Shown here in pieces: positions 40,951 to 46,361 of a DNA stretch of 64,000 nucleotides. The stretch lies in assembly GCF_003334305.1 (NCBI RefSeq), contig NZ_QOWS01000016.1, one strand, 5' to 3'. The DNA is from Escherichia coli. Lineage in GTDB: Bacteria; Pseudomonadota; Gammaproteobacteria; Enterobacterales; Enterobacteriaceae. Each line of letters begins with the position of its first letter. Position 1 is the first letter of the stretch. The position numbers were made by a program, and so were the translations under genes. The notes under the pieces were generated by a model. That model worked only from the letters and a program-made list of their open reading frames with translations. It did no database searches and was not told where the DNA came from.

Positions 40951-42078
40951 ATGCAGTGCGCACTTTACGACGCGGGTCGCTGTCGTTCCTGTCAGTGGAT
41001 AACGCAGCCGATTCCAGAGCAACTCTCCGCTAAAACCGCCGATCTTAAAAATCTGCTCGCCGATTTTCCGGTTGAGGAATGGTGCGCGCCGGTGTCAGGC
41101 CCGGAACAAGGGTTTCGTAATAAAGCCAAAATGGTGGTGAGTGGTAGCGTTGAAAAACCACTGCTCGGTATGCTGCATCGCGACGGCACACCAGAAGACC
41201 TTTGTGACTGCCCGCTTTATCCTGCCTCATTTGCGCCCGTTTTTGCGGCGCTAAAACCGTTTATCGCCCGTGCGGGGCTGACACCCTACAACGTGGCGCG
41301 TAAGCGTGGCGAACTGAAATACATTCTGCTGACTGAAAGCCAGAGCGATGGCGGCATGATGCTGCGCTTTGTACTGCGTTCTGAAACCAAACTGGCACAA
41401 CTGCGTAAGGCGCTGCCGTGGTTACAGGAACAACTACCGCAACTGAAAGTTATTACCGTCAATATTCAGCCGGTACATATGGCGATTATGGAAGGGGAGA
41501 CGGAGATCTACCTTACTGAACAACAGGCGCTGGCAGAGCGTTTTAATGACGTACCGCTGTGGATCCGTCCGCAAAGTTTCTTCCAGACTAATCCGGCGGT
41601 CGCCAGCCAGCTGTACGCTACCGCGCGCGACTGGGTACGGCAGCTGCCAGTTAAACATATGTGGGATCTGTTCTGCGGTGTGGGTGGCTTTGGTTTACAC
41701 TGCGCGACGCCTGACATGCAGTTAACCGGGATCGAAATTGCATCAGAGGCCATTGCCTGTGCAAAGCAGTCAGCCGCTGAACTGGGCTTAACGCGTTTGC
41801 AATTTCAGGCGCTGGACTCCACTCAGTTTGCCACCGCTCAGGGGGAGGTGCCGGAGCTGGTGCTGGTTAATCCGCCGCGCCGCGGCATTGGTAAACCGCT
41901 ATGTGATTATCTCTCAACAATGGCACCGCGTTTTATTATCTACTCCAGCTGTAACGCCCAAACCATGGCGAAAGATATCCGCGAACTGCCAGGTTACCGC
42001 ATCGAACGGGTACAGCTTTTTGATATGTTCCCGCACACCGCGCACTATGAAGTGCTGACGCTGCTGGTGAAGCAATAA
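40951..42078 (+). CDS. rlmC: 23S rRNA (uracil747-C5)-methyltransferase RlmC (RumB)
   Basis: 375 aa; N-terminal Cys cluster (CxxxxCxxC) and a C-terminal SAM-methyltransferase fold. Confidence 0.9.
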
Positions 42079-42080
42079 AA

Positions 42081-42098
42081 AAGCCGCAGGTGCGGCTT
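42081..42098. terminator. Short hairpin after rlmC (bidirectional with artJ)
   Basis: AAGCCGCA-gg-TGCGGCTT inverted repeat directly after the rlmC stop, with an A-run upstream on plus. Confidence 0.45.
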
Positions 42099-42128
42099 CA
42101 GATTGCTGATCAGGTGCGCTTTGTTCAT

Positions 42129-42228
42129 GCCGGATGCGGCGTGTACGCCTTATCCGGCCTACAAAATCATGCTAAATCAATACATTGCAGAGTTGATGTG
42201 GGCCGGATAAGCGCAGCGCATCAGGCAA
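42129..42228. repeat. REP/BIME element pair between rlmC and artJ
   Basis: gccggatgcggcgtgtacgccttatccggcctaca and an inverted partner ggccggataagcgcagcgcatcaggcaa match REP consensus units. Confidence 0.7.
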
Positions 42229-42252
42229 TCTTACTTTTGTCATCAGTCTCAA

Positions 42253-42984
42253 TTACTGCGGAAACCACTGGTCATTGATTTTCTGATATGTACCGTCAGC
42301 TTTAATTGCTGCCAGCGCGTTATTCAGTTTTTCCAGCAGAGCTTTGTTATCCGGACGTACAGCGATGCCCAGACCGGTGCCGAAGTATTGCGGATCGGTC
42401 ACTTTTTCAGTAGCAACGCCCAGTTGCGGATTGGTTTTCAGCCATTCGTTTACCACCGCTGTGTCACCAAATACCCCATCAATACGACCATTTTTCAGAT
42501 CGATAAAGGCATTCTGATAACTGTCATAGGAGACAGTTTTCACTTCGGGGTGCTGATCCTGAATATATTTCTGGTGCGTGGTGCCGTTTTCCATCCCAAT
42601 ACGTTTGCCTTTCAGATCGGCAAACGTTTTGTAGGTATCTTTTTTGGCAATCACGACGGCTGAGTTTTCATAGTAGGGCGTGGTAAACGATACCTGCTTG
42701 CTACGCTCGGGCGTGATATCCATACCGGAGATTACGGCGTCATATTTTCTGAATTTCAGTGACGGGATCAGGCTGTCGAACGCGTGATTAGTAAAAGTAC
42801 ATTCTGCCTGCATTTGTTTGCACAAGGCTTTTGCCAGATCGATATCAAAGCCGACAATCTCATTATTAGCACCTATAGATTCAAAGGGTGGATAGGTGGC
42901 TGAAACGCCAAAATTGATTTTCTCTGCGGCAGAAGCACCGAAAGTAAAGGAAGCAAGTAAAGCGGCAAGAACTAACTTTTTCAT
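42253..42984 (-). CDS. artJ: Arginine ABC transporter periplasmic binding protein ArtJ
   Basis: ATG 42984 gives 243 aa with signal peptide (MKKLVLAALLASFTFGASA). Confidence 0.9.
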   Translation of the reverse strand: MKKLVLAALLASFTFGASAAEKINFGVSATYPPFESIGANNEIVGFDIDLAKALCKQMQAECTFTNHAFDSLIPSLKFRKYDAVISGMDITPERSKQVSFTTPYYENSAVVIAKKDTYKTFADLKGKRIGMENGTTHQKYIQDQHPEVKTVSYDSYQNAFIDLKNGRIDGVFGDTAVVNEWLKTNPQLGVATEKVTDPQYFGTGLGIAVRPDNKALLEKLNNALAAIKADGTYQKINDQWFPQ

Positions 42985-43053
42985 GATGGAACTCCCGTCT
43001 GTCAATCTTATGATTTTTGGCCGTGTCTGCGGCATGGGATAACAATGCCATCA

Positions 43054-43092
43054 AGTGAATTTATATGCAATAAATATGATTAAATAATTTAA
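43054..43092 (-). promoter_or_regulatory. Candidate ArgR boxes upstream of artJ
   Basis: AT-rich tandem near-palindromes (aGTGAATttatATGCAat, then ATGATtaaaTAATTT) resembling the ARG-box consensus TnTGAATwwwwATTCAnw, about 70-110 bp upstream of artJ. Confidence 0.4.
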
Positions 43093-43098
43093 ATGAAA

Positions 43099-43134
43099 TA
43101 AAAAAAGACGGATACCTTAGTGAGTTGTCCGTCT
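43099..43134 (-). terminator. Rho-independent terminator downstream of the artPIQM operon
   Basis: AGACGGA-loop-TCCGTCT hairpin with an A7 run on plus, giving a U-run after the hairpin on the minus strand. Confidence 0.55.
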
Positions 43135-43157
43135 TCATTATAAGAATTTATGCACTA

Positions 43158-43248
43158 TGTAGGCCGGATAAGGCGTCCACGCCGCATCCGGCACAGGCAC
43201 CGTGCTGATGTCTGATGCGACGCTGGCGCGTCTTATCAGACCTACAAA
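43158..43248. repeat. REP elements between artJ and artM
   Basis: tgtaggccggataaggcgtccacgccgcatccggca and tgtctgatgcgacgctggcgcgtcttatcagacctacaa match REP consensus types. Confidence 0.7.
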
Positions 43249-43275
43249 CCCCCCCGGCGAATGTACGCAGCTACA

Positions 43276-43944
43276 TTAATTTCGCCGTTCGAATGCCAGT
43301 GCTTTGCGCTCGATCAGACGCATCATCAGCGTCAGCAGGCCGTTGACGACCAGGTAAATAATCCCTGCCGCACCGAACACCATTACATCGTAGGTGCGTC
43401 CGTACAACAACTGGCTGTATCCCATCACTTCCATCAGCGTAATGGTGTAAGCCAGAGAGGTACTTTTGAACACCAGCACCACTTCGTTGGAATAAGAAGA
43501 GAGCGAGCGTTTAAAGGCATACGGCAGCAGGATCGCCAGCGTATCTTTTTTGCTCATTCCCAGGGCGCTACAGGACTGCCACTGACCTTCTGGGATCGCA
43601 CGAATTGCACCGTAAAACAGCTGCGTGGTATACGCCGCACTGTTCAGCGATAACGCAATCAGCGCACATAACCACGGTTCTGACAACAAATGCCACAGTG
43701 CCGGATACTCCTGCAAAGTCGGAAACTGGCCCGGCCCGTAATAAATCAGGAAGATCTGCACCAGCAGCGGCGTACCGGTAAACAGCGTGATATAACCCCG
43801 CACCAGCCACACCAGCACCGGCGTTTTCAGCGTCAGGATGATGGTAAAAATCAATGCCAGAATCAGTGCCACAATCAGCGAGGCAACGGTTAGCGTCAGG
43901 CTGGTGTGTAGCCCTTTCATCAGTTCGGGTAAATACTCAAACAT
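43276..43944 (-). CDS. artM: Arginine ABC transporter permease
   Basis: 222 aa, hydrophobic permease. Confidence 0.9.
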   Translation of the reverse strand: MFEYLPELMKGLHTSLTLTVASLIVALILALIFTIILTLKTPVLVWLVRGYITLFTGTPLLVQIFLIYYGPGQFPTLQEYPALWHLLSEPWLCALIALSLNSAAYTTQLFYGAIRAIPEGQWQSCSALGMSKKDTLAILLPYAFKRSLSSYSNEVVLVFKSTSLAYTITLMEVMGYSQLLYGRTYDVMVFGAAGIIYLVVNGLLTLMMRLIERKALAFERRN

Positions 43945-46144: not shown

Positions 46145-46361
46145 TGACACTCGTATACTGGCAGTCTGATAGCTATTGAGGTCGAAGATAGTACCTTTGA
46201 CAGAATAATTATGCAATATTTCTGCTTTAAAAGTTAAAAGCAAAGCGCATTATTCAATAAACATAGCACAAAATAACGGGGGCGGTGGTCGGCGAGCATA
46301 AATGTCGGCATTCCTCACGAAATGCCGGACAATTTACGGGGTTTATTGGTTGATCAAGGCG

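Follow-up and report, generated by a model that had tools for sequence, protein, structure and literature searches.

The malE-malF intercistronic REPs are a known case of REP elements acting as 3′-UTR stabilisers. REPs of Escherichia coli are divided into types y, z1 and z2, which are defined, together with the GTAG tetranucleotide and the non-complementary bases of the stem, in PMC3333891. Pairs of such units make up BIMEs: BIME-1 consists of y and z1 in inverse orientation and occurs in single copy, frequently with an IHF site in its long (L) linker, and BIME-2 consists of y and z2 in inverse orientation over a short (S) linker and is usually repeated in tandem (PMC3333891). For E. coli K-12, the literature already covers the REP elements of the locus considered here, the control of the artJ promoter by ArgR, and a monocistronic artJ transcript. 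The artJ/artPIQM entry of a table in PMC10100675, which cites EcoCyc, gives REP83a-b, and the sigma-70 promoter of artJ is repressed by ArgR via two 18-bp ARG boxes, 3 bp apart, over the -35 (PMC6640053). The K-12 RefSeq annotation of the region lists no repeat features, and a literature search did not yield a published name for the REP adjoining artM.

We analyzed a 64,000-nucleotide stretch of E. coli DNA (the window), in which the genes follow the E. coli order potHI-ybjO-rlmC / artJ / artMQIP. Gene identities were taken from annotated E. coli records that are identical or nearly so, K-12 included. The rlmC coding sequence (23S rRNA m5U747 methyltransferase; 40951-42078, plus strand), placed from the ORF list and from two annotated records, an identical one and K-12, is convergent with artJ (42253-42984, minus strand), annotated as a periplasmic arginine-binding protein of 243 residues. 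The final gene of artPIQM, artM, is annotated at 43276-43944 on the minus strand. ArtJ and ArtI are 65% identical, in agreement with an earlier statement that artI is a paralog of artJ inside the operon. An ORF at 42090-42278 (plus strand) was rejected as spurious; it overlaps the BIME-1 described below, and REP-overlapping ORFs, e.g. yahH, are a known annotation artefact.

A preliminary description of the locus had placed REPs on both sides of artJ and had named alignment to REP consensus families as the check. Aligned in this way, the four units show 1, 1, 2 and 3 mismatches, and 0 of 100 dinucleotide-preserving shuffles matched for each REP consensus; the y, z1 and z2 consensus strings are backed by an Rfam match and by identical copies of the units at further loci. 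The three units other than the z1-like one form hairpins that are imperfect but stable (-20 to -22 kcal/mol, z -3.5 to -5.8) and keep the GTAG tetranucleotide. Both clusters are intergenic, and related copies occur at fetB/cnoX, wcaK/wzxC and yiaW/aldB. At the first two of these loci the y and z2 units are near-identical to those at artJ, with unrelated linkers and flanks, and a megablast search with a 28-mer seed placed the BIME-2 unit at a median of 9 sites per genome. The consensus matches, the Rfam match and the copies at other loci thus uphold the REPs on both sides of artJ, with essentially exact coordinates, and both clusters are ordinary, already catalogued members of the E. coli REP/BIME family.

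The cluster in the rlmC-artJ spacer (42128-42230) is a single BIME-1 downstream of artJ, in which a y REP and a degenerate z1 REP stand in inverse orientation, in single copy, on either side of a 35-nt linker containing AATCAATACATTG. The y-type REP (42128-42163, plus strand; consensus match 42129-42162) has one mismatch to the y consensus, folds at -20.9 kcal/mol with a 2-nt symmetric internal loop in the stem, and is found as an identical 35-mer elsewhere in other genomes; CTAC at 42159-42162 corresponds to the GTAG of this REP on the minus strand. Within the L-type linker (42164-42197), AATCAATACATTG at 42175-42187 matches the IHF consensus WATCAANNNNTTR exactly, and is a predicted IHF site. 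The z1-like REP (42198-42230, minus strand; consensus match 42198-42226) has 3 mismatches to the z1 consensus: GTGG (42198-42201) replaces GTAG, an extra mismatch is present in the stem, and the predicted fold is weak (-8.5 kcal/mol, z -0.7). In K-12 the GTAG and the stem of the z1 REP are intact, so that compared with the K-12 BIME-1 the z1 unit of the window has lost GTAG and one stem pair. A flanking motif of the mosaic element, …GTGCGCTTTGTTCA (42100-42127), also adjoins the y REP at the unrelated yiaW/aldB locus and is missing in the REP-free allele described below.

The second cluster, in the artJ-artM spacer (43158-43245), is one BIME-2 unit downstream of artM, in which a short linker joins a y REP to a z2 REP. 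The y-type REP (43158-43193, minus strand; consensus match 43159-43192) has one mismatch, carries GTAG at 43159-43162 on the plus strand, and folds at -21.8 kcal/mol with a 1-nt internal loop. It is present in all 6 of the E. coli strains aligned, including the short allele of ECO20 and EC50. The z2-type REP (43210-43248, plus strand; consensus match 43210-43245) has 2 mismatches, with CTAC at 43242-43245, and folds at -19.8 kcal/mol with a 2-nt symmetric internal loop. The S-type linker between them (43194-43209; 16-17 nt in length) is variable between loci where the REPs are conserved. The y/z2 pair and the short linker are those of BIME-2, of which only one unit, and no tandem series, is found here.

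On the minus strand the order at each cluster is the same: stop codon, REPs, and then a hairpin with a U-tract. Hairpin terminators beside the REPs had been proposed, and both were located on this strand. The intrinsic terminator of artJ (42074-42099) is an AAGCCGC-ACCU-GCGGCUU hairpin (42080-42099) followed by U6, which was found by a terminator scan and folds at -18.7 kcal/mol (z -5.7). Its U-tract overlaps the rlmC stop codon, and on the plus strand the same hairpin comes after rlmC without a U-tract. The artPIQM terminator (43098-43137) is an interrupted hairpin (43105-43135) with U7, with a fold of -12.7 kcal/mol (z -3.7) in the window strain and -21.1 kcal/mol in K-12; it was missed by the pattern scan because the stem is interrupted in the window strain, and was recovered by folding.

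Published K-12 transcript ends agree with this arrangement. Term-seq in minimal medium gives an artJ RNA 3′ end at 899644 on the minus strand, and full-length SMRT-Cappable-seq reads of artJ run from a TSS at 900626 to a TTS at 899643. These 3′ ends correspond to window positions 42077 and 42076, in the U-tract of the distal hairpin, although they were obtained in K-12, whose rlmC-artJ allele, unlike that of the window, has a second hairpin copy. The span of the K-12 transcript implies that artJ is monocistronic, as had been suggested, and that BIME-1 lies inside the artJ 3′ UTR. K-12 full-length reads of artPIQM end short of artJ, i.e. they contain the operon without artJ; the Term-seq supplement of Adams et al. 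holds no curated 3′ end for artM/artPIQM. In the database used by Yan et al. (their supplement), the artJ terminator is annotated as Rho-dependent. We regard both terminators as intrinsic, that of artJ on the basis of the hairpin, the U-tract and the K-12 3′ ends, and that of artPIQM on the basis of the hairpin, U7 and conservation.

The promoter region of artJ likewise conforms to the K-12 description. Scanning the minus strand for the sigma-70 consensus did not recover the artJ promoter, which combines a poor -10 (CATTGT) with an extended TG; its position was taken instead from the K-12 TSS in the literature. Transfer of this TSS by alignment would set the start of transcription at 43035, and the hexamers read off the sequence are an extended -10, TGgCATTGT (43042-43050), and a -35, TTGCAT (43065-43070), within a 5′ UTR and promoter spanning 42985-43070 on the minus strand. 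Both TGGCATTGT and TTGCAT are conserved across genera. The ArgR operator (43054-43092) comprises a proximal ARG box (43054-43071) with one mismatch and, 3 bp away, a putative, weaker distal box (43075-43092) with ~4 mismatches as read from the sequence. The ARG-box scan of the window gave 10 matches, not above the chance expectation of 7.7, and is informative only by rank and position: the two best matches lie upstream of artJ and artP, and the proximal artJ box ranks first in the entire 64-kb window. Together with PMC6640053, in which ArgR binding and repression at artJ are K-12 data, this substantiates the suggestion that artJ has an ARG-box promoter of its own; the K-12 and window operators differ at a single position of the alignment, on the border of the distal box.

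To place these elements in a wider context, we compared 79 Enterobacteriaceae artJ loci in which both genes were found, 6 from Escherichia and 73 from other genera. When scanned with the E. coli consensus sequences, E. coli-type REPs flanked artJ in none of the 73 non-Escherichia loci and only in the 6 Escherichia loci. The other elements are retained: a hairpin with a T-run lies upstream of artJ in 65 of the 73 non-Escherichia loci, and 72 of the 73 have the ARG-box/-35 motif with no more than 2 mismatches. The stem sequence of the artPIQM terminator changes between genera and the hairpin is retained. On the other side of artJ, the shortest rlmC-artJ spacers in genera with this adjacency measure 33-47 bp, most of them containing a single hairpin and T-run abutting the rlmC stop, and the hairpin and T-run beside the rlmC stop are conserved in Citrobacter and Kosakonia. 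The REPs had also been invoked to explain the large intergenic gaps, and they do account for the extra length: the artM-artJ spacer is 291 bp in the window versus a median of ~180 bp in non-Escherichia loci, and the rlmC-artJ spacer is 174 bp in the window versus 28 bp in E. coli without REPs there.

Two points go beyond the preliminary description: the rlmC-side cluster belongs to type BIME-1, with an IHF consensus in its linker, and both clusters show presence/absence variation among strains. The REP-free rlmC-artJ spacer of 28 bp occurs in ~1457 of 5426 complete E. coli genomes (~27%), a figure that is an approximation, since it is the class of at least 99% identity to an empty-site junction query, and this query also picked up the second hairpin copy of K-12-type alleles (3103 genomes). 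On the rlmC side, window-type, K-12-type and REP-free alleles make up roughly 27%, 31% and 27% of E. coli genomes, respectively. In the K-12-type allele, a ~148-bp BIME-1 mosaic lies within a ~22-nt direct repeat, i.e. between two copies of the terminator hairpin; the window-type allele differs by exactly 24 bp and is without the artJ-proximal copy beside the artJ stop, and the REP-free allele has one hairpin copy, as in other genera. On the artM side, a single y REP without z2 is found upstream of artJ in at least 1221 of 5426 genomes (at least 22%). The REP-free E. coli allele could be the product of secondary excision rather than the ancestral state. It is quite improbable that the three rlmC-artJ alleles record a cycle of BIME-1 insertion and excision. 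If the duplication is a target-site footprint, terminator hairpins would be insertion targets of BIMEs, and the locus would offer a natural before/after/excised series for the mechanism by which REPs and BIMEs spread.

We propose that both clusters are ordinary BIMEs, and that the separation of artJ rests on older terminators and an older promoter, for which the REPs are dispensable; we put the probability of this reading at about 90%. In outline, each BIME would have been acquired within the Escherichia lineage, landing in the short interval from a stop codon to an intrinsic terminator already in place, and such an insertion would make the REPs part of the transcribed 3′ UTRs of artJ and artPIQM. 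The separate status of artJ with respect to artPIQM and rlmC would predate the REPs and would depend on (i) the artPIQM terminator hairpin with its U-tract, (ii) the ArgR-operated sigma-70 promoter directly behind that terminator, and (iii) the artJ terminator, whose U-tract runs over the rlmC stop codon. The REPs lengthen the spacers and, by analogy with REPs elsewhere, may modestly protect the upstream mRNA from 3′ exonucleases or bind IHF or gyrase on the DNA; we call them passengers because they appear dispensable. The preliminary description had the REP clusters isolating artJ. This is accurate as to their flanking position, and fails in the causal sense, in that REP-free alleles and genera keep the terminators, the operator and the promoter. 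A model in which the REP clusters themselves insulate or terminate, and so make artJ a separate unit, could draw on reports that BIMEs terminate or attenuate transcription and serve as topological insulators (PMC3333891, introduction), and, with no plus-strand U-tract at the rlmC-side hairpin of the window strain, rlmC transcripts may need BIME-1 or Rho in order to stop. The K-12 artJ RNA, however, ends at the hairpin U-tract past the BIME and not at the REPs, and the terminators and promoter are retained in the REP-free alleles of ~27% of genomes and at the 73 REP-free non-Escherichia loci, which makes such a role very improbable.

A selected function of the REPs as 3′-UTR stabilisers, with hairpins that block 3′-to-5′ exonucleases and tune artJ and artM mRNA and protein, is possible but unlikely. 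The REPs at artJ are transcribed, three of them fold stably, and REP-containing transcripts give degradosome-dependent decay intermediates and are stabilised (PMC10100675). Several other genera carry palindromic repeats of their own in the same slot, which might hint at a selective benefit of a structured element there. On the other hand, a stable terminator hairpin after each REP already shields the 3′ end, the presence of the REPs is highly variable within E. coli, and the window allele carries a decayed z1 unit. Binding of IHF, Pol I and gyrase is established for the REP/BIME family (PMC3333891), and with an exact IHF consensus in the BIME-1 linker one may envisage a role in DNA, where IHF on this linker and gyrase on BIME-2 would relieve supercoiling, or insulate against it, between the convergent genes rlmC and artJ and between the tandem units artM and artJ. 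We consider this distinctly unlikely, given that by alignment the K-12 linker is one base off the core IHF consensus and that many strains dispense with the elements. That the y-z2 unit is a gene for a naRNA4-like nucleoid-associated non-coding RNA is extremely improbable, even though Rfam naRNA4 (RF02564) matches 43162-43242 on the plus strand with 78.5 bits, above its gathering score of 59.5. The transcript known from this site, the 3′ UTR of artPIQM, comes from the opposite, minus strand, where the model scores 47 bits, below threshold, and a model built from a REP element recognises any y-z2 BIME, of which there are ~9 per genome. Rfam matches to lsy-6, ES036 and isrK were below threshold and are put down to chance.

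Beyond correct annotation, the importance of these results is small. On the reading of the REPs as dispensable passengers, the refinement is that they were added specifically in Escherichia, to an arrangement of transcription units that is conserved across Enterobacteriaceae, that they lie inside 3′ UTRs rather than at unit boundaries, and that E. coli genomes differ in whether they have them. The series of alleles could be used as a natural experiment, on a small scale, to follow the effect of REPs on mRNA fate and the turnover of BIMEs.

Compared with known systems, the BIME-1 of the window resembles the BIME-1 elements of E. coli, also described as RIP/RIB or IHF-binding REP elements, in its long conserved linker and in being extragenic and at the 3′ end of a gene. 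The y/z2 pair is likewise arranged head to head over a short variable linker as in other E. coli BIME-2 elements, which typically form tandem multiples, whereas this locus holds one unit, reduced in many genomes to the y REP. With respect to the bidirectional intrinsic terminators of convergent genes, the REP-free allele, Citrobacter and Kosakonia have a single hairpin between the stop codons of artJ and rlmC, with an A-tract on one side and a T-tract on the other, whereas the window hairpin, following the proposed BIME-1 insertion, has a U-tract in the artJ direction only. Finally, the artJ locus shares with malE-malF stable REP hairpins that are transcribed downstream of a coding region, but differs in that its REPs, ~22 and ~30 nt from the stop codons, each precede a canonical terminator.

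The locus is the E. coli potHI-ybjO-rlmC / artJ / artMQIP region; across positions 41900–43400 the window agrees with several E. coli chromosomes at 100% identity, and this stretch has matches in 5,426 of the 5,426 complete genomes of the collection. According to the annotations of K-12 and of an identical record, rlmC lies at 40951–42078 (+), artJ at 42253–42984 (−) and artM at 43276–43944 (−), followed by artQ, artI and artP, which leaves spacers of 174 bp (rlmC–artJ) and 291 bp (artJ–artM). ArtJ and ArtI share 65% identity over their whole length, in line with the earlier view of artI as the paralog kept in the operon.

REP clusters are present on both sides of artJ where the preliminary description had placed them. 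Cluster 1, in the rlmC–artJ spacer, pairs a y REP (42129–42162, +; 1 mismatch to the y consensus) with a z1-like REP (42198–42226, −; 3 mismatches to z1) across a 35-nt linker with an exact IHF core consensus, a predicted site, at 42175–42187. Cluster 2, in the artJ–artM spacer, pairs a y REP (43159–43192, −; 1 mismatch) with a z2 REP (43210–43245, +; 2 mismatches) across 16–17 nt. For the y, z1 and z2 consensus strings scanned, independent support was sought from Rfam, copy number and other loci, and was obtained. The Rfam naRNA4 model, which derives from a REP element, matches 43162–43242 with 78.5 bits (gathering score 59.5), and searches seeded with 28-mers still place the 91-nt y–z2 unit at a median of 9 sites per genome. 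Units near-identical to the y and z2 of cluster 2 are found at fetB/cnoX and wcaK/wzxC, where linkers and flanks are unrelated, and in another strain the yiaW–aldB interval contains the y 35-mer of cluster 1 unchanged, again flanked by the motif GTGCGCTTTGTT. No match to any of the three consensuses arose in 100 dinucleotide-preserving shuffles of the window. A further y-type REP (3 mismatches) is located at the window start (113–146, −), and the C-tract directly past the z2 REP (43249–43255) is C7 in the window, C6 in K-12 and C5 in O157:H7.

On the minus strand, the artJ stop codon (42253) is followed after 22 nt by the z1 REP, then by the linker, the y REP and a terminator hairpin (42080–42099, −) with a U6 tract overlapping the rlmC stop codon. 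In published full-length K-12 reads (SMRT-Cappable-seq), the TSS–TTS pair 900626–899643 holds b0860 (artJ) alone and the artPIQM (b0864–b0861) units exclude artJ; in M63 glucose medium, Term-seq maps a K-12 3′ end to 899644(−). It falls on the final U behind the distal hairpin, equivalent to window 42077, and none of the curated Term-seq 3′ ends falls at the artJ-flanking REPs. The reads and the mapped end show that artJ is monocistronic, as had been proposed, with a 3′ UTR of ~200 nt that carries the BIME-1 of cluster 1, and that the transcript boundary is the hairpin and U-tract rather than a REP. For the terminator (42074–42099; K-12 899643–899656), the supplement of Yan et al. records an earlier annotation as Rho-dependent; despite this annotation, it is a canonical hairpin with U6, and the mapped 3′ ends fall in the U-tract.

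The order 3′ of artM is similar: stop codon (43276), z2 REP (~30 nt on), y REP, then the artPIQM terminator (43105–43135, −), an interrupted hairpin followed by U7. Cluster 2 lies within the artPIQM 3′ UTR, and hairpin terminators do sit beside both clusters. The stem is a perfect 13 bp in K-12 (−21.1 kcal/mol) and an interrupted one in the window strain (−12.7 kcal/mol), where read-through toward the artJ operator region is possibly higher. The ArgR operator starts 8 nt past the U-tract. In an ARG-box scan of the whole 64-kb window the best match (43054–43071, 1 mismatch) is found here, and the second-best (46200–46217) upstream of artP. Work from Charlier's group (PMC6640053) describes an ArgR-repressed sigma-70 promoter of artJ's own, with two 18-bp boxes, 3 bp apart, overlapping the −35. 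When the published K-12 TSS 900626 is carried across the alignment, the start falls at window 43035 (−); its extended −10 is TGgCATTGT, and its −35, TTGCAT, lies within the proximal ARG box. The separate ARG-box promoter previously suggested for artJ is thus borne out.

To compare other genera, we used 80 artJ loci from Enterobacteriaceae species representatives, in 79 of which, 6 of them Escherichia, artM and artJ were both located. Only the 6 Escherichia loci have E. coli-type REPs flanking artJ. Among the 73 others, where the median artM–artJ spacer is 180 bp, an ARG-box/−35 motif with ≤2 mismatches is present in 72 and a hairpin with a T-run just upstream of the operator in 65; the stem sequence changes between genera while the hairpin is retained. 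From the artM stop to the T-run the median is 57 nt in other genera vs 158–173 nt in Escherichia, so REP insertion took place past the stop codon and ahead of the terminator. Three loci (L018, L032 and L077) carry different palindromic repeats of their own in this slot, namely a z1-like REP in Salmonella arizonae, a REP type of its own in an Enterobacter, and three GAGGG…CCCTC palindromes in L077; the slot is a recurrently colonised position. In other genera with rlmC next to artJ, the rlmC–artJ spacers are 33–47 bp at their shortest, and most of these short ones contain AAAGCCGC-loop-GCGGCTTTTTTATTGC directly at the rlmC stop, like the REP-free E. coli allele. This junction is also an insertion hot spot: it holds PTS IIC/IIB and sulfatase genes in O157:H7 (L004:1-2452) and, in many Klebsiella, Raoultella (L026:3308-5493) and Enterobacter-like genomes, a ~2.3-kb two-component system (490-aa histidine kinase, 238-aa OmpR-type regulator), with just 33–47 bp in Citrobacter amalonaticus and Kosakonia.

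Both artJ-flanking spacers vary within E. coli. On the artM side, the y REP stands alone in at least 1221 of 5426 genomes. On the rlmC side, 1473 of 5426 have the window-type junction, 1702 the K-12-type, with BIME-1 and a second terminator hairpin copy beside the artJ stop, and ~1457 a 28-bp spacer with one hairpin and no REP; most of the rest presumably resemble O157:H7 with its inserted genes. The ancestral artJ/rlmC terminator hairpin is a ~22-nt direct repeat flanking BIME-1 in the K-12-type allele (L001:3147-3344) and a single copy in the REP-free allele (L003:478-505), and the window allele (42079–42252), whose junction is common to E. albertii and other Escherichia species, lacks the artJ-proximal copy, a difference of exactly 24 bp. 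The repeat may be the footprint that BIME insertion left by duplicating its target, it may serve as a substrate for precise excision, or both may hold. In window-type and K-12-type alleles the hairpin beside the rlmC stop no longer precedes a T-rich tract in the rlmC direction, and the window allele (42080–42112, + strand) also lacks the second, T-flanked copy.

The preliminary description held that the REPs and the terminators beside them isolate artJ. The arrangement of REPs, terminators and promoter that it drew is supported, but a causal role of the REPs is not, since the boundary lies at the hairpin and U-tract and terminators and operator are kept where REPs are absent; its observation is confirmed and its interpretation stands apart from this role. 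The window strain would have the same transcript boundaries as K-12, since it shares the conserved promoter and distal hairpin. The comparative evidence indicates that the artJ-flanking REPs are late, dispensable insertions, probably selectively near-neutral passengers that at most contribute 3′-exonuclease protection or IHF/gyrase binding.

Known REPs have GTAG at the hairpin foot and an internal stem mismatch; BIME-1 combines y, z1 and an L linker with an IHF site, and BIME-2 y, z2 and a short linker (Ton-Hoang et al., PMC3333891). Both clusters display these hallmarks except in two respects: the window strain's z1 unit carries GTGG and an additional stem mismatch, owing to which its fold is weak (−8.5 kcal/mol, z −0.7; the remaining three units, −20 to −22 kcal/mol), and the BIME-2 of cluster 2 consists of one unit, not a tandem array. 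A PMC10100675 table that cites EcoCyc gives REP83a-b for the artJ / artPIQM entry, so the elements were already catalogued; they are known elements and represent no departure from known kinds.
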